DNA of 64,000 bases. Source: an uncultured Actinomycetes bacterium (GTDB lineage: Bacteria; Actinomycetota; Thermoleophilia; Solirubrobacterales; 70-9). The position numbers and the translations under genes are program-made. The notes beneath the pieces are model-generated. The model was given only the letters and a program-made list of their open reading frames with translations, was not told the origin of the DNA and ran no database searches. Shown piece by piece: positions 5,455-57,916 of the stretch (positions are counted from its first letter, which is position 1; the number at the start of each line of letters is the position of its first letter). The stretch is taken from positions 31,123 through 95,122 of the forward strand of contig CAVRIF010000001.1 of assembly GCA_963721215.1 (NCBI GenBank). Direction: 5' to 3'.

Positions 5455-6399
5455 ATGAAGAAGGAAGACAAGGCAGCCCTGGTCGACGAGATCGCCGATC
5501 GCCTCGGCGACGCGGAGGCGATCTTCGCCGTCGACTATCGAGGCATCACGGTCCCGCAAGCAGCCGAGCTGCGCGCCAAGCTGGCCGAGGCGGAGGCGAA
5601 CTTCCGCGTGGTCAAGAACCGGCTCGCGAAACGGGCAACGGAACGGGCCGGCACCGCCGAGCTCGACCCCCTGTTCGAGGGCCCGACCGCGCTCGCATTC
5701 GTCAAGGGCGACGCGGTGGCGGCGGCGAAGGCGATCTCGACCTTCGGTCGCCAGCACGACATCCTGGAATACAAGGGCGGGCTGATGGACGGGGCGCCGC
5801 TCGACCCCGAACAGTTCAGGACGATCGCCCGCCTGCCTGGCCTGGACGTACTCCACGGCCAGCTTGCCGGCGTCGTCGCCAGCCCGCTCACCGGCCTCGT
5901 CCGCGGCCTCTCGTCGATGCTCTCCGGCCTCGCCGTGGCCCTCGGCCAGATCCAAGAGCAGGGCCTGGTGGGCGGGGAAGAGCCGGCCCAGGAAGAGCCC
6001 GAGCCGACCGACGAGGCGGAGCCGGAGGAGAGCGCCCGGGAGAGCACCGAGGAGACGGCGGAGGAGAGCACCGAGGAGGAGCCCGAGGAGACTGAAAAGG
6101 AGGAGCCGGCTGGGGCTAGCGACGAAGTCGCGGAAGGCACGGCCGAACCTACCGCCCCCCCGGAGCCCGAACCCGCCGGAAACGGAGCCGAAGGCGAGGC
6201 TTCCGGCGGTGATGTCTCCGAGGAAGGCGGCGGAATTATTTCGGAGGCTTCCGGCGGTGATGTCTCCGAGGAAGGCGGCGGAGAGATGCCAGAGGAACCA
6301 GAGACTTCAGACGAAGCTGCAAACGATGAGAAGGAATCCCTCGAGGAATCCGAAACCGCTGGCGAGGATCCCGAGGGAGCAAGTGAGGAGAACGACTAA
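5455..6399 (+). CDS. rplJ: 50S ribosomal protein L10 with ~145-aa acidic C-terminal extension
   Basis: From ATG 5455 the N-terminus [17 protein letters not shown]...[16 protein letters not shown] matches L10. The track start GTG 5428 is an in-frame alternative. The canonical part ends near ...[12 protein letters not shown] (about nt 5965). The ORF continues without a stop to TAA 6397-6399, overlapping the rplL ATG (TAATG). Confidence 0.93.
6113..6209 (+). repeat. structured ~98-bp repeat, copy A (in frame inside rplJ)
   Basis: GGGCTAGCGACGAAGTCGCGG...GAACCTACCGCC...AACCCGCCGGAAACG..GCCGAAGGCGAGGCTTCCGGCGG, read as [32 protein letters not shown]. Confidence 0.9.
6196..6291 (+). repeat. 48-bp tandem duplication (2 units) starting in the 3' arm of copy A
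   Basis: GAGGCTTCCGGCGGTGATGTCTCCGAGGAAGGCGGCGGA occurs at 6196-6234 and again at 6244-6282. It encodes [13 protein letters not shown] twice. Confidence 0.9.
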
Positions 6400-6791
6400 T
6401 GGCAACAAGTGCAATGTCCACCGATGAATGGATCGAGGAGCTGAAGACGATCTCGGTGATCGAGCTCTCTGAGCGCATCAAGGCGCTGGAGGAGGAGTTC
6501 GGCGTCTCGGCGACCGCGATCGCGGCTGCCCCGGCGGCCGGGGCCCCGGCCGCGGGCGATGAGGCCGGCGAGGAGGAGTCGACCACCGTCGACGTCGTGC
6601 TGACCGCCCCCGGCGACAAGAAGATCCAGGTGATCAAGGCGGTTCGGGCCGCCACCGGGCTCGGCCTGAAGGAGGCCAAGGCCCTCGTCGACAGCGCCCC
6701 GAAGGCCGTCAAGGAGGGGCTCGAGCGCGACGAGGCCGAGAAGCTCAAGTCCGATCTCGAGGAGGCCGGAGGCGAGGTCGAGCTGAAGTAG
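6399..6791 (+). CDS. rplL: 50S ribosomal protein L7/L12
   Basis: [34 protein letters not shown]...EVELK C-terminal domain. It has an Ala/Pro hinge. Confidence 0.97.
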
Positions 6792-6828
6792 CCACGCCTG
6801 CCGACCCGCCAACTCGCACCTGCTAGGC

Positions 6829-6858
6829 TTGCGTGAGCGTGCGTAGTTATGGTATTTT
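6829..6858 (+). promoter_or_regulatory. possible sigma-70-type promoter upstream of rpoB
   Basis: TTGCGT (6829-6834), an 18-nt spacer, then TATTTT (6853-6858), in an otherwise GC-rich 160-nt rplL-rpoB spacer. Sequence pattern only. Confidence 0.3.
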
Positions 6859-6951
6859 GCGGGGTCGCGCGCCGTTGGCCCTGCTTGCTTCGAATCTCTC
6901 GCGCGATTCGTTCGATTCGTTCTGCCCCGACCATCCGAGGAGTCGCCTAGT

Positions 6952-10524
<3,573 letters not shown>

Positions 10525-10539
10525 GGACCAGAAAGGCAG

Positions 10540-14553
<4,014 letters not shown>

Positions 14554-14572
14554 GGCCGCGACACCGGCCGTC

Positions 14573-14613
14573 TAGGCGCCCCGAAACACAGGTCATTTAG
14601 GCGCCCCGAAACA
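14573..14613 (+). repeat. two 16-bp direct repeats downstream of rpoC
   Basis: TAGGCGCCCCGAAACA at 14573-14588 and 14598-14613. The second can pair with the following GGCGC. Confidence 0.8.
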
Positions 14614-14805
14614 GGCGCAGTAGCCAGGCAGCCACCAGGCAGCCCTGCCCTTGGGTAGGTGAGCCGATGACGTTCCCTGATCCAATCGAATGTGGGATTG
14701 GGGACCGTATGGGTACCCAATCACTGACTCGACGCGCTCGCCCTACTTGCCCTGAAACGCATGCAGGTCCGCGCCTTAGCGAGCCGCGATTCGTGCGGAG
14801 GTGGG

Positions 14806-15132: not shown

Positions 15133-15136
15133 TGCT

Positions 15137-15631: not shown

Positions 15632-15661
15632 ACTTTCAGCGTAGCCAAGAGCCAGGGCAGC

Positions 15662-16560: not shown

Positions 16561-17085
16561 CTAGGGCTCGTGCTTCCGCCCCCCGAGCCAGCGGGGTCGG
16601 AGGCCGGCAAGCTGGCTCGGGGTCAGCGTTGCGAGGATCGCCCCGCTGAACATCAGCGCCAAGGCGCCGGCCATCTCCAGCCAGAAGCCGGTCTGGGCCA
16701 CGGCCTTTGTGTCGTCGAGCTGCCCGGGGAGCGACGTGCACTCCTCCGCGGGCGTGCCGACGCTGTTCGCGTCCGGCAGGTCGACGACCAAAAACAGGAC
16801 CAGGGCGGCCAAGCCTGCGATCGCCACCGAGATCGCGGCGGGCCTGGATGCCCATAGGACCGCGACCAGCACGGCAGCGATCGCGAACAAGGCGATCACG
16901 CCTAGCGCGAGGTGATGACGGTCCGAGGCCTGCTGATCGCACAGCGGCTCGCCCCCGGCGGGAACGAACTCGAAGGTGGTCGTGAACTCCGAAGCAAACA
17001 GCGCAAGCGCCGCGACGATGCAGGCGTAGGGCAGCAGGCGCTCGGGGTGGAAGCGGGTTCGCGGTGGCGGCTTGCCGGCGCTCAC
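16561..17085 (-). CDS. hypothetical 4-TM membrane protein (paralog B), antisense to the str operon
   Basis: GTG 17085 overlaps the stop of the upstream paralog (GTGA). It has hydrophobic segments and shared landmarks with paralog A (ASEF/ASQF after TM1, H-rich start of TM2, GFWLEM/GFWVQL before TM4). Confidence 0.6.
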   Translation of the reverse strand: MSAGKPPPRTRFHPERLLPYACIVAALALFASEFTTTFEFVPAGGEPLCDQQASDRHHLALGVIALFAIAAVLVAVLWASRPAAISVAIAGLAALVLFLVVDLPDANSVGTPAEECTSLPGQLDDTKAVAQTGFWLEMAGALALMFSGAILATLTPSQLAGLRPRWLGGRKHEP

Positions 17086-17699
17086 GTGGCGACTCCCTCC
17101 ACGCCCGAGCCGCCCGCGGAGGCCGCAAACGTGCTCCCTGCGACGCCGGCGCTCCCGCGCCGTTTCGCTGAGCGCGTTCGGCGCCTGGCGCGCTCGCCGC
17201 GCAGGTGGACCGCGAGCAGCGGGCCGCTGACAGCCAGCGTCACCCCGGAGCACAGCTGCACCCAAAAGCCGCCCAGCAGGGTCGCGTTGGCGCCCTGGTA
17301 GGTGGTCGCGGCCAGGCCCTCACGCAGCCCCTGGCGAGCGTCCACCAGGAGGCTGATGAGGATCACCGCCACCCCGAGCACGATCAGCAGGCGGGCCAGG
17401 CGCCACCTGCCGGCGACCGCGAAGGCCGTCACGAAGAGCGCCGCGATCGCGATCGCGAGCACCGCTACGCCGTGGGCGGATCGGGGCGACTTGCGGTCCC
17501 GCGCCGGGGCGGGCGCCACGTCCCGCACCCCCGTGTACTGGGAAGCCCCGATCTCGACGGCGCGATAGTCGCTGAACTGAGAGGCGCCGAGGGTGATGGT
17601 CGCAGCCAGCGCCACCACGGCGAGGCCGCGGGCCGGGGTGACTACGCGCTCACCAAATCGGACCGCCGAGCGCAACGCGCGCAGCTCCCGACGCCTCAT
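17082..17699 (-). CDS. hypothetical 4-TM membrane protein (paralog A), antisense to the str operon
   Basis: 205-aa ORF with four hydrophobic segments. It can be aligned by eye to the downstream gene. Confidence 0.6.
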   Translation of the reverse strand: MRRRELRALRSAVRFGERVVTPARGLAVVALAATITLGASQFSDYRAVEIGASQYTGVRDVAPAPARDRKSPRSAHGVAVLAIAIAALFVTAFAVAGRWRLARLLIVLGVAVILISLLVDARQGLREGLAATTYQGANATLLGGFWVQLCSGVTLAVSGPLLAVHLRGERARRRTRSAKRRGSAGVAGSTFAASAGGSGVEGVAT

Positions 17700-26466: not shown

Positions 26467-26675
26467 AGGGGTCGGATGTTCATTCGCTCAACGATCACGA
26501 CCTCGTCGAGCGGCTCAAGGATGCACGCCAGGAGGCTTTCAACCTGCGCTTTCGCCAGGCGACCGGCGAGCTCGAGAACACCGCGGGCCTGCGTACGGCC
26601 CGCCGCGACGTCGCCCGACTGCTGAGCGTCGCCCGCCAGCGCGGCATCGACCTTCGGAAGGAGCTCAAGCGCTGA
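26463..26675 (+). CDS. rpmC: 50S ribosomal protein L29
   Basis: From GTG 26463 (GTGA overlap with the rplP stop): [56 protein letters not shown]. It is hidden in the track inside a longer frame run (25929..26675). Confidence 0.9.
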
Positions 26676-40653: not shown

Positions 40654-43481
<2,828 letters not shown>

Positions 43482-43482
43482 T

Positions 43483-43581
43483 CCGCCGGAAGCCTCGCCT
43501 GCGGCTGCGTTTCCGGCGGGCGAGGGTTCCGGCCTGACCCGGCAGGTCGATTCGCAACTACCGCGACTTCGTCGCTAGCCC
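43483..43581 (-). repeat. structured repeat, copy G (intergenic, inverted orientation)
   Basis: The reverse complement reads GGGCTAGCGACGAAGTCGCGGTAGTTGCGAATCGACCTGCCGGGTCAGGCCGGAACCCTCGCCCGCCGGAAACGCAGCCGCAGGCGAGGCTTCCGGCGG. It begins 1 nt after the ligA TAG. Confidence 0.9.
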
Positions 43582-44838: not shown

Positions 44839-44889
44839 CGCCGGCAGGGTAGCCGCTGCACCCGGACGCCGCCGCTGCCTGAATGCGGC

Positions 44890-46230: not shown

Positions 46231-46255
46231 CCTCCCGCTGGCGGCGGGACAGCCG

Positions 46256-48067
46256 TCAGCTCGAGTAGAGAGACTGGATTTCGCCGGCGTACTTGTCGGC
46301 GACCACGTTGCGCTTCACCTTCAGCGTCGGAGTCAGCTCACCCTCCTGCTGGGAGAGATCGCGGGGCAGGATCTTGAACTTCTTCACCTGCTCGACGCGG
46401 GCGAACTTCTGGTTCGCCTTCTCGATGTGCTCCTCGATCGCTTGGCGGACCTCGGCGTTCGAGGCCATCGCCTCCGGATCCTCCGGCAGCCCGTGCTCTT
46501 TGGCGAAGGTCGCCGCCTCCTCGGGGTCGAGCGTGACCAGGGCGACGAGGTACGGCTGGCGGTCGCCGATCACCACGCACTGCGAGACCAGCGGATGTTG
46601 CTTCACCTCGGCCTCGATGTTCGCGGGGGTGATGTTCTTGCCCCCGGCGGTGATGATGATGTCCTTCTTGCGGCCGGTGATCTTGAGGAAGCCGTCGGCG
46701 TCGATCTCGCCGATGTCGCCGGTGTGGAGCCAGCCATCCACGAGCGTTTCGCGGGTCGCCTCGGGGTTCTTGTAGTAGCCCTGGAAGACGTTCGGCCCGC
46801 GCACCAGGATCTCGCCGTCGTCGGCGATCTTCACCTCGCAGCCGGGGAACGGCTTGCCGATCGTCCCGAACTTGAACTCGTCGGCCCTCGCGATCGTCGC
46901 CGCGGTTGAGGTCTCCGTCATCCCCCAGCCCTCGAGCACGAGCACGCCGGATGCGTCGAAGAAGCGGAGGATCTCCGGGTTGATCGGGGCGGCGCCGGAG
47001 ACCGCCTCGATGATCCGTCCCCCGAACAGATTGCGGATGTTCGACAGCACCAGGCGGTCCGCGATCTCGTACTGGATGCGAAGCGGGGGCCACGGGCTCT
47101 TGCCCTGGCGCTCGAGCTCGCGGACTCGGTGGCCCACGCCCACCGCCCAGTTGAAGATCGCCTTCTGCACGCCGCCCGCGCTCTCCGCCTTCGAGGTCGC
47201 GGTGGTGTAGATCTTCTCGAAGATCCGCGGCACGGAGGGGAAGTAGTGAGGTTTGACTTCGGCCAGGTTGGGGAGGATCTTCAGCGGGTCGCGGTCCCAG
47301 TAGGCGAGGACGCCGCCGACGTCGAAGCTGAGCAGCTGGATCAGGAGTGCGAACGAGTGGGCGAGAGGCAGGTAGAGATAGGTGATCCGACCGGCCTCGA
47401 GCACGCTCTGCTCCAGCGACATGTTGAGCATCGCGCGGTAGTTGCCGTGCGAGATCACGCAGCCCTTGGGCGGGCCGGTGGTGCCTGACGTGTAGATGAA
47501 CGTGCAAATGTCGTCTGGGACGACCGAGCGCCACCGCTCCTCCCACTCCGAGACCTCGTGCGAGGCGCCGCGCTGAGCGAGCTCGTCGGCCGAGATCGCG
47601 TCGTCGCTGGAGCCGGTCATCAGGATCACGTGCTCGAGCTTCGGGCAACGGTCGCGGACCTGCCGGATCTTGTCGAGCTGCTCGGAGTCCTCGACCACCA
47701 CAACCTTGGCGTCGGAGTTCTCGAGCACGTACTGGCATTCCTCGGGCGAGTTGGTCTGGTAGATCGGCACCACGATCGCGCCGGCGGTCAGCGCGGCGAA
47801 GTCGTGGTGGGTCCACTCCGGGCGGGTGTTCGCGAGGATCGACACCTTGTCGCCCTTCTGAACTCCGAGATCGATCAGGCCAAGCGCCAGGCTGCGAACC
47901 CGATCGCCGACCTCGGCAAAGCTCTGGGTGGCCCACTCGCCGGAGTCGTCGCGGTACATCACCGCGGCCTGGGAGCCGTACTTCTTCACGGCGGCCGGAA
48001 GGAGGTCCGCGATCGTCACCGAACCGGCGCCGGTCGCCGAACGGGACTCGACGGTCGCTGTCTCCAT
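46256..48067 (-). CDS. fadD: long-chain fatty-acid--CoA ligase (AMP-binding)
   Basis: IYTSGTTGPPKG AMP-binding motif, GWLHTGDIG, GKNITPANIE, typical FACS C-terminus. Confidence 0.9.
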   Translation of the reverse strand: METATVESRSATGAGSVTIADLLPAAVKKYGSQAAVMYRDDSGEWATQSFAEVGDRVRSLALGLIDLGVQKGDKVSILANTRPEWTHHDFAALTAGAIVVPIYQTNSPEECQYVLENSDAKVVVVEDSEQLDKIRQVRDRCPKLEHVILMTGSSDDAISADELAQRGASHEVSEWEERWRSVVPDDICTFIYTSGTTGPPKGCVISHGNYRAMLNMSLEQSVLEAGRITYLYLPLAHSFALLIQLLSFDVGGVLAYWDRDPLKILPNLAEVKPHYFPSVPRIFEKIYTTATSKAESAGGVQKAIFNWAVGVGHRVRELERQGKSPWPPLRIQYEIADRLVLSNIRNLFGGRIIEAVSGAAPINPEILRFFDASGVLVLEGWGMTETSTAATIARADEFKFGTIGKPFPGCEVKIADDGEILVRGPNVFQGYYKNPEATRETLVDGWLHTGDIGEIDADGFLKITGRKKDIIITAGGKNITPANIEAEVKQHPLVSQCVVIGDRQPYLVALVTLDPEEAATFAKEHGLPEDPEAMASNAEVRQAIEEHIEKANQKFARVEQVKKFKILPRDLSQQEGELTPTLKVKRNVVADKYAGEIQSLYSS

Positions 48068-48175
48068 TCGCTCTCCTCCTTCGTTTGGAGTTCTGAGATC
48101 GACCGAGCGCCTCGCGCCAAGACCGATCGAGCGGCTGATTCCGCTGCTTGTGAAGGCTATCTCAGCGAACCGGCG

Positions 48176-48358
48176 CTAGGCGGCGGCCCGGGGCTGTTTC
48201 GGTTGCTGCGCGAGCTGGCGCAGCGAGGAGAGGAAAAGGGTCTTGTCGATACGGCCGTTGAAGATTGGGACGCCCATCTCCATGCACTTAGAGATCACCT
48301 CGCGCCGCTTCATGTCGACTTCCTCAGCGAGCTCGGTGGGCGTCAAGTGGATGGCCAC
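48176..48358 (-). CDS. small helix-turn-helix DNA-binding protein (excisionase/MerR-like HTH)
   Basis: 60 aa from GTG 48358, preceded by a strong SD (GGGAGGAG, 8-nt spacer). LTPTELAEEVDMKRREVISKCMEMGVPIFNGRIDKTLF resembles HTH_17-type domains. Confidence 0.6.
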   Translation of the reverse strand: MAIHLTPTELAEEVDMKRREVISKCMEMGVPIFNGRIDKTLFLSSLRQLAQQPKQPRAAA

Positions 48359-48475
48359 GAATTGAACTCCTCCCGGTCGTTTGCCTATCTGATTCTTATC
48401 GCCCGAGGCGGATGTGTCAACGCTTTTTCCCCCAAATTGCGCCACATCAGGCGCGCCGGTCGAAGCGCATCTACG

Positions 48476-48769
48476 ATGTTTCGCACCGTGGTCGACGAGG
48501 CACAGTCGCTTTCGCCCCCCACCGAGCCGCTCGCCGGCGACGAGGGCTCGTTCCTGGAGTCGCTGATGGACACTGAGCTGTACTCGATCGGCGCCTTCTT
48601 CTGCGACGAGCATCCGGACCTGGTGGACGAGGTGGTGGCCCGCAGCGAGGCGATCGAGCGCAGCGGGCTGGAGGCCTACTCGCGGCAGAGCGGCGGGCCG
48701 ATCGAGGAGAGCTTCGAGACGCTCCTCACCGGCCTCGCGGTTCGCTACTACAAGGCGGTCGCCGGGTAG
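48476..48769 (+). CDS. hypothetical acidic protein
   Basis: 97 aa from ATG 48476, directly followed by the start of the next gene (TAGATG). No recognisable motif and no clear SD. Confidence 0.4.
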   Translation: MFRTVVDEAQSLSPPTEPLAGDEGSFLESLMDTELYSIGAFFCDEHPDLVDEVVARSEAIERSGLEAYSRQSGGPIEESFETLLTGLAVRYYKAVAG

Positions 48770-49459
48770 ATGCACAGGAGCCCATGGCTGCCGCGCCTGC
48801 TGCTGGGCGTCGGCGCCGTAGGCCTCCTCGCGGCGGTCGTGTCCCTCTCGATCGGCGAAGGTGGCCCCGAGAAGATCGCGATCAGCGGCGGCGAGCAAAC
48901 CCAGCAGCTGATCGCCGGGATTCCGCAGGACGGCCCCTATCTGGGCCCGAGCGACGCGCCGGTCACGATCACCGTCTTCAGCGACCTCCAGTGCTCGAGC
49001 TGCGACGACTACCAGCTCCACACGGTCGACCCGTTGATCGAGCAGTACGCTCGCAGCCGCGAGGCCAGGCTCGAGTTCCGCCACATCTCGCTCCAGGAGG
49101 CCGAGACGACGGAGGCCGCCTACGCCGCAACCGCAGCGGGGGAGCAGGACCGCCAGTGGCAGTACATCGACCTCCTGTTCCGCAACCAGGACGAGGCTCC
49201 CGCGAACATCGTCTCGGACGAGTTCCTCGAGGACATCGGTAACGCGATCCCGGACTTCGACCTCGATGCTTGGAAGCAGGCGCGCGACTCGTCCGAGGTA
49301 GCAGACCGGGTCGAGACCGACGCGGCGCTCGCCGCCGAGCTGGGCCTGCGGGTCGAGGGGCCGTCGGTGATGGTCAGCGGGCCCGGCGGCACGGAGGTGC
49401 TTCAGGACTCGCCGTCCAAAGAGCAGATAGACGCCGCCGTGTCGGCCGTCGGGGTCTAG
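48770..49459 (+). CDS. DsbA-like thioredoxin-fold protein (membrane-anchored/secreted)
   Basis: N-terminal hydrophobic anchor. PVTITVFSDLQCSSCDDY contains a CxxC active site in DsbA-family context. Confidence 0.75.
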   Translation: MHRSPWLPRLLLGVGAVGLLAAVVSLSIGEGGPEKIAISGGEQTQQLIAGIPQDGPYLGPSDAPVTITVFSDLQCSSCDDYQLHTVDPLIEQYARSREARLEFRHISLQEAETTEAAYAATAAGEQDRQWQYIDLLFRNQDEAPANIVSDEFLEDIGNAIPDFDLDAWKQARDSSEVADRVETDAALAAELGLRVEGPSVMVSGPGGTEVLQDSPSKEQIDAAVSAVGV

Positions 49460-49489
49460 TCAGGGCGCCTTTGGCAGAATGAATCGCCT

Positions 49490-49563
49490 CGGGGCGTGGC
49501 GCAGCCTGGTAGCGCGCACCGTTCGGGTCGGTGAGGTCGCCGGTTCAAATCCGGCCGCCCCGA
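49490..49563 (+). tRNA. tRNA-Pro (anticodon CGG)
   Basis: Hand-folded. Acceptor CGGGGCG/CGCCCCG, D arm GCGC-AGCCTGGTA-GCGC, anticodon stem CACCG/CGGTG with loop TTCGGGT (CGG), T arm GCCGG-TTCAAAT-CCGGC, discriminator A. Confidence 0.9.
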
Positions 49564-49639
49564 TACCTCACTGGGCGTTCTGGAGCAATCGATACCAGCC
49601 CAGGGGGCGCGATAGCCTCCCAGCCATGGAGGCCGCCCG

Positions 49640-50065
49640 GTGATCAGCGAGCGAGCGATGCGCGCCGTGCTGATCGTGCTGGGCGCCGTTCAGGCCGCCT
49701 CGGGCGCCCTCGCGCTGGTCGCGCCAGGCACCTTCTTCGACGAGATCGGCCGCTACGGGGTCGAGAACCAGCACTACGTCGGCGACGTGGGGGCCTTCGT
49801 GCTCGCCTTCGGGGCAGCGCTCCTGGTCGCCGCCTGGCATCCGTCGTGGCGGGTGCCGGTGCTGGCCCTGGGGGCGCTCTGGTCCGGGCTTCACGTGATC
49901 AACCACGTGTTCGACGTCGGCGAGGCGCGAAGCGACGCACGGGGGGCCTTCGATGCGGTCTACCTCGGCATCGCCGGGCTGCTCTATGTCTACCTGGCCT
50001 GGGCGGCGGCCAGGCTCCAAGCGCCAGGGGCGGCGAGCCCAGCCCGGGAGGAGGAGACCTCATGA
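49640..50065 (+). CDS. hypothetical 4-TM membrane protein
   Basis: 141 aa with four hydrophobic segments. The stop overlaps the next start (ATGA). Confidence 0.55.
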   Translation: MISERAMRAVLIVLGAVQAASGALALVAPGTFFDEIGRYGVENQHYVGDVGAFVLAFGAALLVAAWHPSWRVPVLALGALWSGLHVINHVFDVGEARSDARGAFDAVYLGIAGLLYVYLAWAAARLQAPGAASPAREEETS

Positions 50066-50994
50066 AGGTCTTCGTCGCCGGTGCCAGCGGAGTGATTGGG
50101 GGGCCGCTGGTGCGCCAGCTCGTTGACGCGGGACACGAGGTCACCGGGGCGACGAGCAAGCCGGAGAACACCGCCCGGCTCGAGGCTGCCGGCGCGACGG
50201 CGATCGTCTGCGATGCGCTCGATCCCGAGGCGGTGCACGCTGCGGTCCGGGAGGCGGCGCCGGAGGTCGTGATCAGCCAGCTCACCCGGCTTCCGCGCGA
50301 GTACAACCCGCGGAAGATCGACTACGGGCCAACCAACCGGGCGCGTGCCGAGGGCGGGCACAACATGATCGAGGCGGCACGTGCCGCCGGAGTCAGGCGC
50401 TTCATCACCCAGAGCGTCGCCTTTCTCTACGCGCCAGAGGGCGGGATGATCAAAGACGAGGAGGCGCGGCCGTGGGCGGACGCGCCAGACCCCTTCCGCA
50501 GCGGCGCCGACTCGACGCTGGAGCACGAGCGAGAAGCGACGCACACAGCCGGGCTCGAGGGCCTGGTGCTGCGCTACGGCCAGTTCTACGGGCCGGGCAC
50601 CTATTACGCCTCCGACGGGAACATCGCCGAGCAGGTGCGCCGCCGTCGCTTCCCGATCGTGGGCCGCGGCGAGGGGATGTTCTCCTTCATCCACGTTGAA
50701 GACGCCGCCTCGGCCACCCTTGCCTCGCTGGAGCGGGGCACGCCCGGCGTCTACAACGTCGTTGACGACGAGCCTGCCCTGCTGCGCGAGTGGCTGCCGG
50801 TTTACGCGGATGTACTGGGCGCGAAACGACCCCGTCGGGTGCCGACGTTCCTGGCACGGCTGGCGGCGGGCCCGTTCGCGGTGGCCTTCGCGACTGAGCT
50901 CCGCGGCGCCTCGAACGCCAAGGCCAAGCGCGAGCTCGGCTGGGAGCCCCGCTATGCGAGCTGGCGCCAGGGGTTTCGAGAGGCGCTTGGATAG
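50062..50994 (+). CDS. NAD(P)-dependent epimerase/dehydratase family protein
   Basis: From ATG 50062: MKVFVAGASGVIGGPLVRQLVDAGHEV Rossmann motif. Trimmed from a longer frame run. Confidence 0.8.
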   Translation: MKVFVAGASGVIGGPLVRQLVDAGHEVTGATSKPENTARLEAAGATAIVCDALDPEAVHAAVREAAPEVVISQLTRLPREYNPRKIDYGPTNRARAEGGHNMIEAARAAGVRRFITQSVAFLYAPEGGMIKDEEARPWADAPDPFRSGADSTLEHEREATHTAGLEGLVLRYGQFYGPGTYYASDGNIAEQVRRRRFPIVGRGEGMFSFIHVEDAASATLASLERGTPGVYNVVDDEPALLREWLPVYADVLGAKRPRRVPTFLARLAAGPFAVAFATELRGASNAKAKRELGWEPRYASWRQGFREALG

Positions 50995-51029
50995 GTTTCA
51001 GGCTCACAGCGAGCTAAGGAGAAGTGCAG

Positions 51030-51626
<597 letters not shown>

Positions 51627-51639
51627 AGATCAGGCCGGG

Positions 51640-53286
51640 TCAGCCTGCGGGCGTCGCGGTCCGCTCATCGGGCCGGGCAGCTCCGTCGCGCTCCGGCACG
51701 AAGGACATCGCCCGTTCGGCGAGGGCGGTGATCGTAAGGCTCGGGTTGACGCCCGGATTGGCTGGGACTGCGGCTCCGTCGCAGACCAGCAGGTTGGCGT
51801 AGCCGAAGACCCGGTTGCGGGCGTCCACGACGCCGGTGGAGGGATCTGTGCCAATCACGGCGCCGCCGAGGATGTGGGCGGTGGTGGGGATGTTCAGCAT
51901 CGACTCGGTGAGCGCACTCTGCGGAATGCCCCCTGTGTGCTCCGCGAACCAGCGGGCGGCCCGCCCGGCCGCGGGGATGTAGGTGGGGTTGGGCCGCCTC
52001 GGATCCTGCTCCGTCTGGAGGCGCACGCGGCGCCCCCGCCGCCTTGGGTTCGCACGCAGGCGCATCGCGGTGTCCAGCGACTGCATTACCAGCAGGATCA
52101 CGGTCCGCTGCGACCACTTGCCGGGCCACAGCAGCCGGACGGTTTGGAGAGGGTGGCGAATCATCGCGGCCAGCCACTTCAGCGGCCGCGTGATCCGGGT
52201 CCCGGGTCCGGTCATGGTGGTGAACAGGCCGCTCATCGCGTCGCCGGCCCGCCCGTACGTGACCACCTCGATATGCGTGTCAGGATCGGGGTAGATGCTC
52301 GACGTGATGGCGACCGAGCGGGCGAAGTCGCGGCTGTCGTCGGGAGCGGTAACGGCCTGAATCGACTCCGAATTGGTCCGTACCAGGTACCCGAGCCGCG
52401 TCGAGAGGCGGGGGAGAGCCCCGCTGTGCTTGCAGTCGGCCAGCAGCTGGTTCGTGCCCAGCGCCCCCGCGGCGATCACAACGCCGCGGGCCGTCAGGGT
52501 GCGCTCGCGGCGTCGCAGCCACGCGCCTGGACGCACGGTGGTGACCGCGTAGCCGTCGGAGCCATCGGCCGCTTCCAGGGGGCGAACCTCGATCGCCTGC
52601 CGCTCGGGCAGGACCTCGGCGCCCAGCCGCTCCGCGAACCAGAGATAGTTCTTGACAAGGGTGTTCTTGGCGCCGTGCCGGCAGCCGACCATGCAGCTCC
52701 CACAGCGGATGCAGCCGGATCGCGGCGGCCCCTCGCCGCCGAAATAGGGGTCGGGGACCTGCTTGCCCGGCTCGCCGAAGAAGATCCCCACTCGCGTCGG
52801 CTTGAAGGTCTCGGCAACGCCGATCTGGGCGGCGTACGCGCGCAGCAGCTCGTCGGCCGGGGTCATGCCCTGGTACTCGGTGACGCCGAGCATGCGCTCG
52901 GCGGTGTCGTAGTAAGGCCGCAGCTCGTCCTCCCAGTCGGCAAGGCCGTCCCACTGGGGATCGGTGAAGAACGCGGGGCGCGCGCGGTAGAGGGTGTTCG
53001 CGTAGCCAAGGCTGCCACCCCCGACCCCGTTCCCGGAAACGATGAACACGTCCTTGAAGAAAGTCAGGCGGAAGATGCCCCGCAGGCCCAGGCGCGGCAA
53101 CCAGAAGTAGCGGCGCAGGTTCCAGGCCGAGTTGGCGAAATCGTCGTCGGCGAACCGGCTGCCGCACTCGACCACGCCCACCCGGTAGCCCCTTTCGGCG
53201 AGCCGCAGCGCCGAGACGCTGCCCCCGAAGCCCGAGCCGATCACGAGCCAGTCATAGTCGTGGCCTTGGGCCGGAGCGCCGGTCAT
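51640..53286 (-). CDS. GMC-family FAD-dependent oxidoreductase (cholesterol-oxidase-like)
   Basis: From ATG 53286: ...DYDWLVIGSGFGGSVSALRLAERGYRVGVVECG FAD-binding fold. C-terminal GMC region (HILGGAVIG...). Confidence 0.8.
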   Translation of the reverse strand: MTGAPAQGHDYDWLVIGSGFGGSVSALRLAERGYRVGVVECGSRFADDDFANSAWNLRRYFWLPRLGLRGIFRLTFFKDVFIVSGNGVGGGSLGYANTLYRARPAFFTDPQWDGLADWEDELRPYYDTAERMLGVTEYQGMTPADELLRAYAAQIGVAETFKPTRVGIFFGEPGKQVPDPYFGGEGPPRSGCIRCGSCMVGCRHGAKNTLVKNYLWFAERLGAEVLPERQAIEVRPLEAADGSDGYAVTTVRPGAWLRRRERTLTARGVVIAAGALGTNQLLADCKHSGALPRLSTRLGYLVRTNSESIQAVTAPDDSRDFARSVAITSSIYPDPDTHIEVVTYGRAGDAMSGLFTTMTGPGTRITRPLKWLAAMIRHPLQTVRLLWPGKWSQRTVILLVMQSLDTAMRLRANPRRRGRRVRLQTEQDPRRPNPTYIPAAGRAARWFAEHTGGIPQSALTESMLNIPTTAHILGGAVIGTDPSTGVVDARNRVFGYANLLVCDGAAVPANPGVNPSLTITALAERAMSFVPERDGAARPDERTATPAG

Positions 53287-53410
53287 GGCCCGCAGGATAG
53301 GCACCCGGGGATCACGGCTGGCCACCGACGCGGGCTGTCCGCTGGCGCGGGGGCATAGGATCCCGCCAGCCCGCCACGGCGGCATCGCGAGCACGAGGAG
53401 AGGAGAAGAG

Positions 53411-53827
53411 TTGGCCTATTTCAACGACGCCCAGGAGGTCTATGACACGCTCGGCAAGCTGTTCGTTGACCTCGCGGAGGACGAGGAGCTGGCGCCGAAG
53501 TTCCGCAAGGCGAACACGATCGTCCGCTACGAGTACCGCGAGCCCGAGTCCACGATCACCGTGCGCCTCCAGGAGGGCCAGCCGGGCGACGTCGACTTCG
53601 GCAAGTCCGAGATGGAGCCCGAGGTGGTGATGTCTATGGAGGCCGACACCGCGCACCGGTTCTGGCTTGGCAAGGTGAACGTCACCGTGGCGCTCGCGCG
53701 AGGCCAGATCAAGGCCAAGGGCCCGGTGGCCAAGATTCTCAAGCTGGTGCCGTTGACGAAGCCGGTCTTCCCCCGCTACAAGGCCCAACTCGAGTCCCAG
53801 GGCCGCTCAGATCTGATCGAGGCTTGA
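53411..53827 (+). CDS. SCP2 sterol-binding-domain protein
   Basis: From TTG 53411, preceded by AGGAGAAGAG. ...MEADTAHRFWLGKVNVTVALARGQIKAKGPVAKILKLVPL is typical of SCP-2 domain proteins. Confidence 0.7.
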   Translation: MAYFNDAQEVYDTLGKLFVDLAEDEELAPKFRKANTIVRYEYREPESTITVRLQEGQPGDVDFGKSEMEPEVVMSMEADTAHRFWLGKVNVTVALARGQIKAKGPVAKILKLVPLTKPVFPRYKAQLESQGRSDLIEA

Positions 53828-55020
53828 CCTTCAAGGACTTCTACCAGTTCGCCTCGCCCACGCGGATCGTCTCGGGACGTGAGCTGATTCCGAGCGCGGG
53901 CTTCGAGTTCGCAAAGGAGGGCGCCGAGCGCGTGCTGCTCGTCACCGACCGGGTGATCCGGGGCACCGGGTTGGTGGAGAAGGTCGAAAACGGGATCGCC
54001 GACGGCGGACTCGAGGTCGCGGGCGTCTTCGACGACGTCCCGCAGGACTCCGATACCGCGGTTGTGGTGAGGTGTGCTGAGCAGGCGAAGGATGAGGGCG
54101 CCGACAGCTTCCTGGCCGTCGGTGGAGGATCGGTGATCGACACCACCAAGGCCGCCGACGTGATCTTCAGCCACGGCGGCACGATTCCGGAGTGGGAGGG
54201 AGTCTTCGGGCTGCCGCGCGAACGCGACGGGATGGGAAGGCCGCTGCCGTTGGCGCCGCTGGGAGTCATTCCCACCACCGCGGGCACCGGCTCGGAGGCG
54301 AGCCCCGTGGCCGTGATCAAGGACTCCGAACGGGGCATCAAGTTCGTAGTCCTCGACTTCCCGCTGGCCCCGGACCTGGCGATCCTGGACCCCGAGTCCA
54401 CGGCGACCCTGCCGGCGCCGATCGCGGCGGCGACCGGAATGGACGCGCTCACGCACGCGATCGAGGGTGTGACCTCGACCGAGTGGAGCCCGCATGGAGA
54501 CGCCTACGCGCTTCACGCGATCCGGCTGATCCGCGACAACCTGGAGCGCGCCGTCGTCGACACCTCGGATGAGGAGGCCCGCGGCAACATGCTGGTTGCC
54601 GCGAACCTGGCGATCGCCCCCACCGGGTTCGGCGCGACCGGCGTCACCCACTCGATGTCGCACCCGTGCGGGGCCCGCTACGGCGTTCCACACGGGGTTG
54701 CGAACGCGATCAACCTGCCGCCGGTGATCGAGTTCAACGCCGTGGCCAGTGAAGAGGTGGCGGACCAGTTCCGCACTGCCGCCGAGCTTCTCGGGGTGGA
54801 TGCCCGTGGCGAGGGCGAGCAGGTTGGCCGGGCGCTCGCCGATCATGTCCGGGACCTGAGAACGAGCCTCGGCCTACCCGGCCGCCTGTCGGAGGTCGGT
54901 GTCCCGGAGCAGGGCATACCCCAGCTCGCCGAGGATGCGATGGGCGAGGGGTCGACGCTGGTCAATCCGCGCGAGCCGAGCGCTGAGGACTTCGTCGAGC
55001 TGTTCCATCGAGCGCTGTGA
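53824..55020 (+). CDS. iron-containing alcohol dehydrogenase
   Basis: AVGGGSVIDTTKA, GTGSE, and His-rich metal-site blocks (ALTHAIE, HSMSHPCG). Confidence 0.88.
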   Translation: MTFKDFYQFASPTRIVSGRELIPSAGFEFAKEGAERVLLVTDRVIRGTGLVEKVENGIADGGLEVAGVFDDVPQDSDTAVVVRCAEQAKDEGADSFLAVGGGSVIDTTKAADVIFSHGGTIPEWEGVFGLPRERDGMGRPLPLAPLGVIPTTAGTGSEASPVAVIKDSERGIKFVVLDFPLAPDLAILDPESTATLPAPIAAATGMDALTHAIEGVTSTEWSPHGDAYALHAIRLIRDNLERAVVDTSDEEARGNMLVAANLAIAPTGFGATGVTHSMSHPCGARYGVPHGVANAINLPPVIEFNAVASEEVADQFRTAAELLGVDARGEGEQVGRALADHVRDLRTSLGLPGRLSEVGVPEQGIPQLAEDAMGEGSTLVNPREPSAEDFVELFHRAL

Positions 55021-55050
55021 TGGCTGCCACCAGCGGGCTCGCCGGCTGAC

Positions 55051-55731
55051 GTGAGCGCCAGCGACGAAGCCCGGGCCTGGGCCGAGGCCGTGCAGGCGGT
55101 CGCGAGGGATCGCGACCTCGTCTACGAGCCGGTTGGTGGCATCAACCCGGTCGGGGGGCCGGTGGCGCTCTGTCCTGGCGGGACCAACCGGGTCACGGGG
55201 CAGCTGGCGGAGGGCTTCTGGGGCGCATCCTGCGACGCCGATGAGCGCGAGGAGGGAGGGCTGTTCTCGAAGGCCGTGCTTCCCGGTGCAGTGCTGGCCA
55301 AGTCGCACGTTCCCGACCTGGCGAAGGTGATGCCGCCCTTCAACGTCGAGTCGATCGAGCGCCGTCCGGACGAGCTGGTGATGCAACGCGCCTCTCGCCG
55401 GAAGGTCGAGTTCGAGAGCCTGGACTTCAACCGGCGCTTCCTGGCGACCGTGCCGAGCGAGTACGACCCGGTCGCGTTGCGGGAGGTCTTCAGCCCCGCG
55501 TTCCTGGAGTGGGTGACGACGATCGACAACGAGATCGACTTCGGCGTCTCCGAGCAGCAGCTGTGGTTCCTTTGGCGACTCGGTGAGCGCAGCCGCGACC
55601 AGCTCGACGCCGCGCTCGACAACGGCGGCGCGCTTTTCAAGCAAGTCTGCAAGGAGGTGGAGGAGTCGGGGGTCCACACCTATCCGGCGGGTCCCTGGCA
55701 CGCCGGGCTGGAGCCCTTCCCTAAGACATAA
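55051..55731 (+). CDS. hypothetical protein
   Basis: 226-aa ORF with GC3-rich codon pattern. No motif recognised. Confidence 0.5.
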   Translation: MSASDEARAWAEAVQAVARDRDLVYEPVGGINPVGGPVALCPGGTNRVTGQLAEGFWGASCDADEREEGGLFSKAVLPGAVLAKSHVPDLAKVMPPFNVESIERRPDELVMQRASRRKVEFESLDFNRRFLATVPSEYDPVALREVFSPAFLEWVTTIDNEIDFGVSEQQLWFLWRLGERSRDQLDAALDNGGALFKQVCKEVEESGVHTYPAGPWHAGLEPFPKT

Positions 55732-55733
55732 CT

Positions 55734-55831
55734 CCGCCGGAAGCCTCGGCCTTCGGCCTACGTTTCCGGCGGGTTTGACGCGGGCGGGGCGGCAGGTTCA
55801 CTCGCGTGACCCGCGACTTCGTCGCTAGCCC
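55734..55831 (-). repeat. structured repeat, copy H (intergenic, inverted orientation)
   Basis: The reverse complement reads GGGCTAGCGACGAAGTCGCGGGTCACGCGAGTGAACCTGCCGCCCCGCCCGCGTCAAACCCGCCGGAAACGTAGGCCGAAGGCCGAGGCTTCCGGCGG. It begins 2 nt after the TAA of ORF 55051-55731. Confidence 0.9.
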
Positions 55832-55863
55832 GAGCGGCCCCACCTTGGTTCTCGGCTCTGTCC

Positions 55864-56829
55864 CTAGTTGGAACGCGACTTGAGCTCGCGGCGGGCTGTG
55901 CGGTAGAAGCGGAGGGACCTGCGCATGGTGCTTCGGTACCTGCCCAGCACGCCCTTGTTCGGGAGCTCCAAGCCTCCCACGAGCTTATGCGGCGCGAGCG
56001 CCCAGCCCGCGCCCCTTCGTATGAGGTCGCCGCGGACCTGGAAGTTCTCGCGCCAGTTGAAGTCGGCGTCGTGGCTGTGCGCCGTTAGGCAGGCGAGGCC
56101 CTCGGCCAAAGGCAGGCCTGCCGGCTGGGTATCGAGGAGGATCTGGCGGGAGCCGGCGTCGAGGCTCACCGGGACGCGCACGGCGAGCGGGAAGCCATCA
56201 GGGGCGACCAAGGCGAGCACGGCAGTCGCATAGCGCCGACCCAACTGCTCGATTCGCTCGTCCCATGCCAGGGCCCCGCCGCTGGGGGGCTCGTGCGCCT
56301 CGAGCGGCTCCTCACTGTGGCCCGAGCGGACCTCTTCCATGTGCGAGCCATGCATCTGTGGCGGCTTCGTGGGCTCTCCCGCCGGCCACACGAACACGCG
56401 CTCGGGGCGAACCTTGATGTAGATGCGGTTGACGTACCACGCGAACGCGCCGTGCAGGATGCGCGGCACCCGCACCCCCCTCGCGCTTCCCAGCTTGACT
56501 GCCGACTCACGCTCGTAGCGTTCGAGGTTCGCCGCTAGATCGCGGTCGTCAACCTTGGCGGTGCCCTGGACGAGCACCTGGATGCCGCTCTCGATCCCGG
56601 AGCCGGTCGGGTCGGAGAACAGGAGCGCTACATGGGGGTTGCGGCGGGCATCGTCGGCCTTCTTCGGGTAGCCCAGCCCGGTGGTGGTGTCGATAGTTTG
56701 GGCTCCGGGCGAGTAGTACGGCGTCACCGGCCAAACGATCGGCTGCTGTCGGGCGTCGATGGTGGTGAACTCGCAGGTGACGAAGCGCTCGAAGGCGTCG
56801 CGGACCTCCTGTGGCAGGGTGGCGGTCAT
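55864..56829 (-). CDS. pyridoxamine 5'-phosphate oxidase-like (split-barrel flavin-binding) two-domain protein
   Basis: From ATG 56829: MTATLPQEVRDAFERFVTCEFTTIDARQQPIVWPVTPYY...NPHVALLFSD. The track ORF is trimmed because its 5' part overlaps the NUDIX gene. Confidence 0.6.
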   Translation of the reverse strand: MTATLPQEVRDAFERFVTCEFTTIDARQQPIVWPVTPYYSPGAQTIDTTTGLGYPKKADDARRNPHVALLFSDPTGSGIESGIQVLVQGTAKVDDRDLAANLERYERESAVKLGSARGVRVPRILHGAFAWYVNRIYIKVRPERVFVWPAGEPTKPPQMHGSHMEEVRSGHSEEPLEAHEPPSGGALAWDERIEQLGRRYATAVLALVAPDGFPLAVRVPVSLDAGSRQILLDTQPAGLPLAEGLACLTAHSHDADFNWRENFQVRGDLIRRGAGWALAPHKLVGGLELPNKGVLGRYRSTMRRSLRFYRTARRELKSRSN

Positions 56830-56882
56830 AGGAGCGAAACATAGCCCGCCCGTTCGCCCGGTCGGCTCTCGCGTCCACAGGA

Positions 56883-57512
56883 TCAGTACCCGGGCTCGCC
56901 GGGCAGGACCACGCGTCGCCCCTCTCCCTCGCCGACGACGCGCGGCAGAATCGGTTCGATCCGGCGCCCGCGTGCGGCGGCCAGTACCTCCTCGGCGCTC
57001 GAGTTGGGGAGCAGCGCCTCGAGGTGCTTGATGGTCGGGAAGACCAACGACAGCTCGCCGGCCGCGTGGCGGTCGAGCGCCTCGCGAGGCGAGATCCAGG
57101 CGGCCTCGGTGGTCTCGGCTCCGTCGGGGCGTGGCGGCGAGTGGGGTGGCGCGAGCGTGACATAGAAGCGGGTGTCGAAGCGAACCGGCACGATTTCGGG
57201 AGTGATCCATCGCGACCAGGGGAGCAGCTCGGCGTCGGCGGCCAGCTCGATTCCGGCCTCCTCGCGGAGCTCCCGCACCGCGCAGGCCCGGTGCGCGAGC
57301 TCCTCGCCGTCGGTCGCGCTGCCCGCTTCGACCTCGGGCGCCACGGACTCGTCGGCCTCCACCACGCCGCCCGGGAACACCCAGACGCCGGGCATGAAGG
57401 TCGCCTCGAGGCTGCGCCGCACGAGCAGGAGCTCGACCCCGTGTTGGCGGTGCTTGCCGCCCCGGCGCAGCAGGATCAGCGAGGCGGCGGGGCGGGGGGC
57501 TGCCGGGACCAT
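56883..57512 (-). CDS. NUDIX hydrolase
   Basis: Nudix box GGVVEADES...AHRACAVRELREEAGIEL. Confidence 0.8.
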   Translation of the reverse strand: MVPAAPRPAASLILLRRGGKHRQHGVELLLVRRSLEATFMPGVWVFPGGVVEADESVAPEVEAGSATDGEELAHRACAVRELREEAGIELAADAELLPWSRWITPEIVPVRFDTRFYVTLAPPHSPPRPDGAETTEAAWISPREALDRHAAGELSLVFPTIKHLEALLPNSSAEEVLAAARGRRIEPILPRVVGEGEGRRVVLPGEPGY

Positions 57513-57582
57513 CTCGCCTCAACACTAGTGGTGATTTCCGGAAGTACGGCGCCGCCCACGGGTTTGGGTAAGCTGGCGCGCG

Positions 57583-57768
57583 ATGCCCACCGAAACCCAG
57601 ACTGTTCAGCTCTGGATCTGCACGTCCTGCGGCTTCATCTACGACCCGGAGGAGGGCGATCCTGACGGCGGCATCCCGCCGGGCACCCCCTTCGAGCAGA
57701 TCCCAGACGACTGGTTCTGCCCAGTTTGCGGCGCCCGCAAGGCGGACTTCGAGCCTTACGAGGAGTAG
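57583..57768 (+). CDS. rubredoxin
   Basis: [47 protein letters not shown], with two CxxCG knuckles. Confidence 0.93.
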
Positions 57769-57817
57769 TAGCGGGCTGGCGCCGCGGTCGCGGTAGTTGC
57801 GGAGGTGGGGCTGGCCC

Positions 57818-57916
57818 GGGCTAGGGACAAGGTCCCGGTAGTGGCGTGTGGACCTGCCGGGTGAGGCTGGGACCCTAGCCCGGCGGAAACGTAGGCGAAG
57901 CCGAGGCTTCCGCCGG
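57818..57916 (+). repeat. structured repeat, copy I (intergenic)
   Basis: GGGCTAGGGACAAGGTCCCGGTAGTGGCGTGTGGACCTGCCGGGTGAGGCTGGGACCCTAGCCCGGCGGAAACGTAGGCGAAGCCGAGGCTTCCGCCGG. A fragment GTCGCGGTAGTTGCG, matching copy G, lies just upstream (57787-57801). Confidence 0.85.

Follow-up and report, generated by a model that had tools for sequence, protein, structure and literature searches.

Among described bacterial repeats, the Rickettsia palindromic elements (RPE) come closest in behaviour to the one studied here: they are hairpin repeats of ~100-150 bp that lie between genes and also in frame in many unrelated housekeeping genes, to which they add a conserved-looking peptide in tolerant regions (PMC10969869). 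Repetitive extragenic palindromes (REP) and their doublets (REPIN) are presented as hairpin repeats of high copy number that occupy gene 3' ends, stay away from promoters, pass on vertically and last for long periods at orthologous sites (PMC3116915, PMC3337134, bioRxiv 10.1101/2021.07.10.451892). Transposable elements of the miniature inverted-repeat kind (MITEs), such as Correia/NEMIS, ERIC, Coxiella QMITE1 and the Anabaena MITEs, are small, non-autonomous, multi-copy and foldable and sometimes give translated in-frame fusions (PMC10969869; PMC5896051). Here we analysed a repeat of ~105-120 nt that is present as nine copies (A to I) and one partial copy (D0) in a 64-kb stretch of DNA from an uncultured Actinomycetes bacterium (contig CAVRIF010000001.1, positions 31,123 to 95,122; hereafter the window, whose own numbering is used below). 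Two further groups of small elements are relevant to it. The minimal elements of the insertion sequence family IS200/IS605 have hairpins near both ends, lack terminal inverted repeats and target duplications, use a strand-specific single-stranded DNA (ssDNA) substrate and insert on the 3' side of a short target. Mycobacterial interspersed repetitive units (MIRU) are actinobacterial repeats of 40-100 bp located in operons, with ends that overlap the flanking stop and start codons and with a variable tandem number; they are direct tandem repeats without hairpin covariation.

The repeat is a new family of bacterial structured interspersed repeats, whose combination of features is new and whose kind is already known. 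The joint explanation that fits best, and in which we have good confidence, is that of a non-autonomous structured interspersed DNA repeat family that spread as DNA, with the copies inside open reading frames (ORFs) being translated passengers. The original prediction, made from the window sequence, stated that compensatory base-pair flips in three stems of the repeat reflect selection on nucleic-acid structure and not on the peptide, and took them as the signature of a functional RNA or ssDNA structure carried inside ORFs. That reading is right on structure versus peptide and too narrow on the object, which is a dispersed repeat and not a feature specific to ribosomal-protein mRNAs.

The repeat family and its two modules

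A pattern anchored outside the stems, run on 185,579 species genomes, gave at least 80 loci, ~68 of them real; among the matches listed, all the real loci came from ~12 metagenome-assembled genomes (MAGs) of uncultured Actinomycetota. An nhmmer search of these loci and the window gave 128 hits, and a covariance model, built from the MAFFT alignment and the three stems, detected 108 copies in 603 kb from ~12 related MAGs. A metagenome scan with the 5' module alone returned at least 120 contigs, which came from many Joint Genome Institute (JGI) soil and rhizosphere samples and in which the covariance model found 96 further copies. Copies of the repeat are abundant in this clade of uncultured soil Actinomycetota. 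There was no copy in IMG/VR, where the sole match was a chance hit without the hairpin. Rfam at gathering threshold reported only two tRNAs in the whole window and nothing on the repeat, and at E values up to 10 around copies G and I it gave chance-level hits only (18.7 bits at most). An exact-sequence look-up of the S5 protein found no match, and a literature search found no description of this sequence nor of such an element in Actinomycetota.

The element, which measures ~110-125 nt over the family as a whole, has the consensus GGGCTAG-CGACGAAGTCG-CGG..ACCTGCCG....CCCGCCGGAAACGNAGSCGAAGSCGAGGCTTCCGGCGGAG and is composed of two modules with differing sequences and separate folds. The 5' module contains GGGCTAG, a 5-bp stem with a GAA triloop (stem 1) and then GGTAG. 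The 3' module is a bipartite hairpin of 37-40 nt, with an outer stem of 9-10 bp (stem 2), an internal loop and an apical stem of 3-4 bp (stem 3) with a GNA triloop, directly followed by the tail GGAGTTATTC. Conservation extends from ~5-15 nt upstream of GGGCTAG through this tail. Two subfamilies were distinguished: type 1 (ACCTGCCGCCCCG...), which is open in the frame that reads ASDEV, and type 2 (ACCTGCCGGGTCAGG...CCCTAGCCC), 2 nt longer and with stops in that frame. In other genomes many copies have one to three partial 3'-arm repeats behind them. Neither a long-range GGGCTAG...CTAGCCC pairing in type 2 nor a middle hairpin GGACCTG/CAGGTCC had compensatory support, and the mutual-information scan (see below) detected no covariation between the element halves. 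Terminal inverted repeats were not found either: at best, the 28 nt upstream were complementary to the 30 nt at the 3' end over 5.58 nt on average, against 5.76 nt in mismatched copy pairs, and no copy reached 9 nt.

Constraint on base pairing and not on the peptide

Pairing in the three stems was scored in three sets of copies and compared with shuffled and slid controls. In the MAFFT alignment, which was not fitted to the structure, 96 copies showed 96.2% paired positions (86.0 ± 0.5% when shuffled) and 141 two-sided changes (42 ± 4 when shuffled, 8-24 when slid). The alignment to the covariance model, with 108 copies, gave 98.7% against 86.9 ± 0.5% for pairing and 176 two-sided changes, distributed over 11 of the 18 pairs, against 51 ± 5 in shuffled and 7-17 in slid controls; for the 96 metagenome copies the values were 95.9% against 83.0 ± 0.5%, and 175 against 54 ± 5 and 8-26. 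The observed pairing and two-sided changes were reached by 0 of 500 shuffles in each of the three sets. The metagenome set is independent for stems 2 and 3 because its copies were picked on the 5' module alone, and it brings extra pair types, e.g., C:G in 46 and A:U in 35 copies at one stem 2 pair. When all variable columns were scanned for mutual information with no structure given, 7 of the top 11 column pairs were stem pairs; the top-scoring stem pairs were each at least 95% Watson-Crick or wobble, the remaining high scorers were neighbouring columns that mark the two subfamilies, and covariation was limited to base-paired columns.

This covariation is not a hitch-hiking effect of the subfamilies, since the states of different stems were nearly unlinked whereas the arms of each stem were coupled. 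The states of stems 1 and 3 occurred in all four combinations (34/35/14/11, p = 0.73) and adjacent stem 2 pairs were unlinked (p = 0.84), while the two arms of each pair, up to ~30 nt apart, were 97-99% coupled. The same few pair states recurred in the model alignment, where the ratio of C:G to G:C was 51:50 for stem 3 and 73:28 for stem 1. Wobbles were unequal on the element's top strand, with 21 G/T against 8 A/C overall, and in the copies antisense to host genes there were 9 GU against 1 AC in the element's own orientation. The bias follows the element strand, in antisense copies too, and this argues, on small numbers, against the host transcript as the selected molecule. Note that columns 156 and 220 of the model alignment, inside stem 2, hold a conserved A/C mismatch (AC in 85 copies, CA in 10) that covaries yet never becomes a standard pair.

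The stem variants that the original prediction had quoted for the window were all found again, at the coordinates it had given. Stem 1 reads GCGAC-GAA-GTCGC in copies A, B, D, G and H and is flipped to GGGAC-GAA-GTCCC in E (31164-31176) and to GGGAC-AAG-GTCCC in I (57824-57836). Stem 2 reads CCGCCGGAA...TTCCGGCGG in A, C, D, F, G and H, with variants CCGGCGGAA...TTCCGCCGG in copy I (57880-57916) and CCGCCGGC...GCCGGCGG in copy E (31218-31253); CCGCCGGAG in copy D yields a G/T wobble. Stem 3 is GCC-GAA-GGC in A, C and D, GCC-GCA-GGC in G, GGC-GAA-GCC in B, E, F and I, and GGCC-GAA-GGCC in H. As had been claimed, the flips in the coding copies are non-synonymous (AEG versus GEA; ASDEVA versus ARDEVP), in agreement with the translations. 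Two corrections are needed: stem 2 of copy B ends in ...CCGGCAG, which leaves one C/A mismatch, and in copies C and F stem 1 is without its 5' arm. The variant 3' arm of copy E was considered as a deletion or an artefact of the E-F junction, and both were ruled out by an identical variant in an orthologous rpsE gene (L018:7580-7699; L numbers designate loci in the related genomes). With up to 2 mismatches allowed, the stem 1 13-mer had 23 matches in the window against 8.5 ± 2.7 in shuffles. Folding energies supported the stems in sign and only modestly in size: relative to dinucleotide shuffles all 91 copies had z below 0 and 44% were below -2, with a mean of -1.83, and the window copies ranged from -0.7 to -3.1.

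To assign gene context, a gene caller that scores codon log-odds was trained on these loci; a classification based only on the G+C content of third codon positions was rejected because it mixed up sense frames with mirrored antisense frames. In-ORF copies made up 21 of the 97 classified copies, and 20 of these 21 share the only sense frame without a stop, the other two sense frames being closed by the TAG in GGGC-TAG (+4) or in CGG-TAG (+21). The open-frame peptide is rich in Ala, Glu, Pro and Gly. Such copies always lie in tolerant places such as termini and inter-domain linkers, and the internal insertions all use the open frame: Pfam domains located them between the lipoyl domains of an E2 acyltransferase, between the N and C domains of a UvrD-like helicase and between the domains of a DEAD/Helicase_C helicase, and further in-frame hosts that Pfam confirmed were a radical-SAM enzyme, an ABC ATPase, RuvX, NuoJ, Cu-oxidase_4 and the ribosomal proteins L10, S17, S3 and S5. 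A few genes run into the element in antisense frames and thereby acquire short C-terminal extensions.

Differences between orthologous coding copies (S5 tail, E2 linker and helicase) were distributed 44:59:46 over codon positions 1:2:3, against 20:15:88 in the host coding DNA next to them in these genomes, from which it follows that the peptide is not conserved. Stem pairing was 97.0% in coding and 96.0% in non-coding copies. The constraint acts on base pairing and not on the peptide sequence, and the peptide matters in one limited way, the use of the open frame. A peptide profile compared with 5.8 billion proteins had 10 matches, mostly short ORFs called on intergenic copies, and revealed no host range. 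Splicing or translational bypass of the in-ORF copies was rejected, as all of them are open and frame-preserving and the stop-bearing type 2 never occurs in ORFs. The structural part of the original prediction thus held, covariation standing far above the controls; its suggestion of a functional RNA in the rpsC and rpsE messages is unsupported, as copies are dispersed, occur in both orientations, are coding only in a minority, vary in their presence and have no Rfam relative.

Placement, movement and competing explanations

Non-coding copies were found between convergent genes (23), between tandem genes in sense (14) or antisense (26-29) orientation, and between divergent genes (~5). The flanking genes often stop in the element, at the TAG of +4 or +21 or at a TGA/TAG at -19 to -6 on the sense side, and, on the opposite side, at stop codons that the tail (TTATTC or TTCTTA) provides when read as its reverse complement. 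One copy (L024) spans the gap exactly, from the stop codon to the next start codon.

Gain, loss, partial duplication and inversion of copies were observed at orthologous sites of related genomes. L001:6385-6429 is a clean empty site that is filled in L030, where the insertion separates the last sense codon of the antisense gene from its TAG. A second site is empty in L061; in L044 it holds a copy in one orientation, 14 nt beyond the stop, and in L016 and L057 a copy in the opposite orientation, exactly at the stop. A supposed empty site in the L028/L055 pair was dropped, since the sequences did not align, and a small gene flanked by two copies in L044 was ruled out as a transposase. Among 52 orthologous pairs, 7 had their copies in opposite orientations. 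The copies of L054 and L042 are mutually inverted, and a 15-nt remnant is what L048 retains; window copy G is inverted relative to L006 with an identical left junction (immediately after CTGGTC); and the whole intergenic block that holds window copy I and a solo 5' fragment upstream of it is inverted in L025. An internally deleted remnant is retained in L041. Remnants of ~15-45 nt, internally deleted or 5'-only (L041:5026-5093, L048:1496-1514 and L042:1925-2062), suggest imprecise loss, possibly by deletion across the hairpin.

No clear target duplication was seen at the junctions. There was none in the L001/L030 comparison; L061 versus L016 showed TAA...TAA around the insertion, but the 3' TTA is the consensus tail of the element, and L061 versus L044 gave a doubtful diverged repeat of 8-9 nt. 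The two clean insertions lie 3' of ...GGGTTA and ...GAGTCTA on the element strand, and in the 5' flanks of other copies a TA is frequent ~15 nt upstream of GGGCTAG, in a position that is not fixed. In the comparison of L008:1740-1760 with L022:1168-1239, the host sequence of the empty site (GCCCGCTCGGGACATCC) resembles the 5' edge of the element (GCYCGGGCTAG), a hint that the element may prefer certain targets or that the 5' junction may involve microhomology.

The 804 stem-pair comparisons between orthologous copies comprised 60 two-sided compensated changes, 16 wobble-preserving single changes and 33 disrupting single changes; in the 13 closest pairs (at least 90% identity in unpaired columns) the numbers were 8, 3 and 0. 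Divergence between orthologous copies is often greater than that of their flanks (unpaired columns are 84% identical, flanks ~90%), and the differences cluster in the 3' hairpin. Since copies are less alike than their flanks and pair states recur, much of the change probably consists of exchange between copies followed by a filter on pairing, rather than of compensation in place; many same-site flips are then probably exchanges between family members and not new mutations.

The explanation that we favour would work as follows. The element would spread, or have spread, as DNA, and its hairpins would be the feature recognised by the propagation machinery, most plausibly on a folded single strand, as in systems of the IS200/IS605 type or in those of REP with their associated tyrosine transposases (RAYT). 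What suggests such a substrate is that terminal inverted repeats are missing, that no target duplication is clear and that G/T wobbles exceed A/C on the top strand whichever way the host is transcribed. Exchange between copies would shuffle the stem variants, and copies with mismatched arms would be removed or repaired. The in-ORF copies would be translated passengers that survive because their frame is open and their peptide presumably harmless. Several observations weigh against this explanation. A tblastn search of ~1.25 Mb of copy-bearing DNA with three hand-written Y1/HUH transposase sequences detected no transposase (no match better than E = 0.25), and the genes between inverted copies look like housekeeping genes. 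Most copies are at orthologous sites common to species, with flanks 85-97% identical, so that movement is slow or old, and such long retention could also mean a benefit to the host. Clean empty sites number only two, and the junctions define no common target or duplication. Fold stability exceeds that of shuffles by only ~1.8 standard deviations, the wobble asymmetry is based on ~30 non-independent cells, and MAG assemblies can mis-assemble repeats, though identical junctions recur in independent assemblies.

Host benefit is the basis of one alternative, unlikely in our judgement although it deserves attention, in which the repeat is a cis-acting RNA that works at gene ends as a 3'-end stabiliser, a processing site or a bidirectional terminator poor in U-tracts; this could coexist with a mobile origin. 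It would agree with the location of non-coding copies at gene 3' ends and their avoidance of divergent (promoter) regions (~5/68), with the maintenance of most copies at orthologous sites across ~8-12 species, with the two-sided and wobble changes and the lack of any disrupting single change in the closest orthologous pairs, and with the presence of AGUUAUUC directly after the 3' hairpin and of GUUNGGG in reverse. It is at odds with the frequency of both orientations in tandem contexts, with a wobble bias that tracks the strand of the element and not that of the transcript, and with copies placed midway in the S10/spc operon and within genes for helicases and E2, positions at which termination would do harm. 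A terminator consensus scan of 43000-58500, which covers terminators with a U-tract, placed no site at copies G, H or I and gave 4 sites against 5.3 expected; moreover, the repeat has no Rfam relative and its occupancy differs between close relatives.

Pairing could also be kept without selection, if hairpin-templated repair (quasi-palindrome correction) or short-tract gene conversion between the many copies mimicked compensation, by copying one arm from the other or swapping whole hairpins. The recurrence of a few pair states at many sites (51:50 in stem 3 and 73:28 in stem 1), the low identity of orthologous copies relative to their flanks, with changes concentrated in the 3' hairpin, and the reshuffled variants of different stems are what such processes would produce, and they probably contribute. 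However, conversion tracts ending between the stem 2 arms, which are 20-30 nt apart, should leave mismatches where 97-99% of the cells pair; templating from one arm would erase the internal loop and the A/C mismatch at consensus 78:96, both of which persist; and the tolerance of G/T above A/C points to a filter on one folded strand. Repair or conversion is insufficient alone, given the pairing level, the free assortment between stems and the conserved internal loop, and we think it improbable that pairing is kept with no selection at all. Far less credible still is a protein module, in which a tail peptide, acidic and disordered, was selected in ribosomal proteins and passed between them by duplication, with the DNA similarity and the stems as by-products. 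The seven coding copies of the window do share one frame and specify similar Ala/Glu/Pro-rich peptides at the tails of L10, S3, S17 and S5, but most copies are non-coding, type 2 has stops in that frame, the third-position excess of host genes is missing, the repeat unit is also present in unrelated enzymes and occasionally read in antisense as a C-terminal extension, the peptide profile matches only 10 proteins, and covariation is confined to base-paired columns. A bolder version of the mobile-DNA explanation, which we put forward as a speculation and regard as doubtful, would make the element an undescribed strand-specific hairpin transposon or recombination module that has neither inverted ends nor a target duplication, homes to the stop-codon edge of genes, brings replacement stops at both ends and one 'safe' frame, and can re-enter or flip in the same gap of a few nucleotides. 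Such a module would have given ribosomal proteins, helicases and E2 enzymes throughout the soil lineage new tails and linkers of a disordered kind, and its mover would not be among the known REP or IS200 partners.

Window copies and comparison with known elements

The window has ~67-69% G+C and carries on its + strand the rpoB/rpoC, str, S10, spc and alpha ribosomal operons. Copies A to F, all on the + strand, are translated in one common frame in tails or extensions of L10, S3, S17 and S5 (bit scores below are those of the covariance model). Copy A (6105-6223, 107.7 bits; stem 1 at 6119-6131, stems 2 and 3 at 6173-6209) is in frame in the C-terminal tail of L10 (ORF 5428-6399, Pfam Ribosomal_L10). 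Its 3' arm and tail (GAGGCTTCCGGCGGTGATGTCTCC...) form a 48-nt tandem duplication on the same strand (6196-6291), detected by repeat finding at 88% identity and translated as one 13-residue peptide, twice over. The C-terminal tail of S3 (ORF 24929-26047) contains copy B in frame (25801-25919, 124.6 bits; stem 1 at 25815-25827, stems 2 and 3, with the C/A mismatch, at 25869-25905) and, in tandem with it, copy C (25920-26033, 88.2 bits; stems 2 and 3 at 25983-26019); copy C is missing from the orthologous S3 tail of L018 (target gap of 30 versus query gap of 148). Besides the repeat copies, S3 has a Pro/Ala/Arg-rich linker of ~80 aa. In the N-terminal extension of S17 (ORF 26675-27418) a partial degenerate copy, D0, with the 5' module only (GCGACGAGATCGC; 26728-26798, +, 28.6 bits, 72-74% identity by repeat finding), precedes the in-frame copy D (26860-26978, 112.4 bits; stem 1 at 26874-26886, stems 2 and 3, with the G/T wobble, at 26928-26964). 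Pfam Ribosomal_S17 covers only residues 174-241 of this ORF, whose N-terminal extension of ~170 aa is acidic and then strongly basic. The ribosomal proteins of this lineage are unusually extended. The C-terminal tail of S5 (ORF 30569-31372) holds copy E in frame (31150-31255, 61.2 bits; 31140-31255 by nhmmer; stem positions given above) and, in tandem with it, copy F (31240-31358, 104.3 bits; stems 2 and 3 at 31308-31344), in a place where the S5 tails of L018, L021 and L063 have a single copy.

The other three copies are non-coding and lie between convergent genes. Copy G, of type 2 (43469-43589, -, 119.3 bits; stem 1 at 43563-43575, stems 2 and 3 at 43483-43519), fills the gap between a ligA-like gene (41466-43481, +) and a PBP4-like gene on the - strand, and the stop codons of both genes come from its ends. 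The PBP4/D-Ala-D-Ala carboxypeptidase-like ORF (43558-44838, -) has an Arg/Pro-rich stretch in its last ~150 residues, and the codon-usage caller puts the true 3' part of the gene (43575-43982) in another frame, with the TAG of GGGCTAG as its stop; this suggests that the ORF is frameshifted, as a pseudogene or through an assembly error. A permuted transfer-messenger RNA (tmRNA) called by ARAGORN at 43370-43986 (-) has as its 'tag' peptide the translated 3' hairpin of copy G, and is almost certainly a false call caused by the repeat, there being no Rfam tmRNA in the window. Copy H (55720-55839, -, 110.3 bits; stem 1 at 55813-55825, stems 2 and 3 at 55734-55772, with the 4-bp apical stem GGCC/GGCC) is of type 1 with its frame broken by one additional nucleotide, and has orthologous copies in L025 and L040. 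Copy I, of type 2 (57810-57930, +, 123.7 bits, fold z = -3.13), has stem 1 and stems 2 and 3 (CCGGCGG.../...CCGCCGG) at the positions given above. The degenerate solo 5' module just 5' of it (GGGCTGGCGCCGCGGTCGCGGTAGTTGCG; 57773-57801, +) was read by eye and is homologous to the inverted block in L025. A weak covariance-model match of 16.5 bits, restricted to the 3' hairpin (model positions 74-104), at the C-terminal end of the L4 gene (23070-23101, +) may be the remnant of a decayed copy. An exact GCGACGAAGTCGC 13-mer in the region of an EF-Tu-like gene (1392-1404, -) was ruled out as a copy, since the rest of the element is missing around it, and is a chance or unrelated occurrence. Separately from the repeat, two minus-strand genes (16561-17651) between the rpsL/rpsG-like genes and fusA break the co-directional str operon.

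Rickettsia has so far offered the best-documented case of a hairpin repeat that colonises essential genes in frame; these results add abundant soil Actinomycetota of high G+C content and, among the genes, those of core ribosomal proteins. They also provide a clean natural data set in which pairing is conserved, the peptide drifts and stem variants recombine, of use for the study of selfish DNA, structure and protein evolution. For annotation, the copies give rise to small ORFs that are spurious, to wrong gene ends and to one or more false tmRNA calls, and they lengthen ribosomal proteins in MAGs. The mobilising enzyme, if identified, could be a new single-strand hairpin recombinase.

The repeat lacks the defining traits of a classical MITE (no inverted ends) and of REP/REPIN (not extragenic, no inverted doublet), and matches nothing in Rfam. 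It is MITE-like in its size of ~120 nt, in coding for no transposase and in having many copies per genome; unlike classical MITEs, it has no terminal inverted repeats, no clear target-site duplication and no parent insertion sequence that we could find. With REP/REPIN it shares location, long persistence at orthologous sites, the lack of terminal inverted repeats and, likely, a folded single-strand substrate. However, REPs are extragenic by definition, and here roughly one copy in five is inside an ORF; a REPIN is formed by two inverted copies of one REP, and here there are two different hairpins; GTAG lies 5' of the palindrome in REPs and 3' of stem 1 here; and no RAYT was found in the ~1.25 Mb searched with the hand-written Y1 sequences. 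The anatomy, the wobble bias of the top strand and the two clean insertions 3' of TTA or CTA (two events only) resemble IS200/IS605, and the anatomy is compatible with a mini-element of that type, which we take as a lead; on the other side, the same Y1 search found no such transposase, and the known ends of IS608 are unlike the covarying bipartite 37-nt hairpin. A likeness to MIRU lies in the filling of a stop-to-start gap in L024 and in the variable tandem number of 3' arms, and we know of no MIRU inserted in frame in ribosomal proteins or helicases. The likeness remains greatest with the RPE, since here too hairpin repeats lie in frame in unrelated genes. It is a likeness of behaviour, homology being improbable between repeats of the AT-rich Rickettsia and those of Actinomycetota with ~68% G+C. 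In comparison with the RPE, the present family has two distinct hairpin modules, only one sense frame free of stops, a 3' arm that is often partly duplicated in tandem and differing orientations at orthologous sites, and counts the ribosomal proteins S3, S5, L10 and S17 among its hosts.

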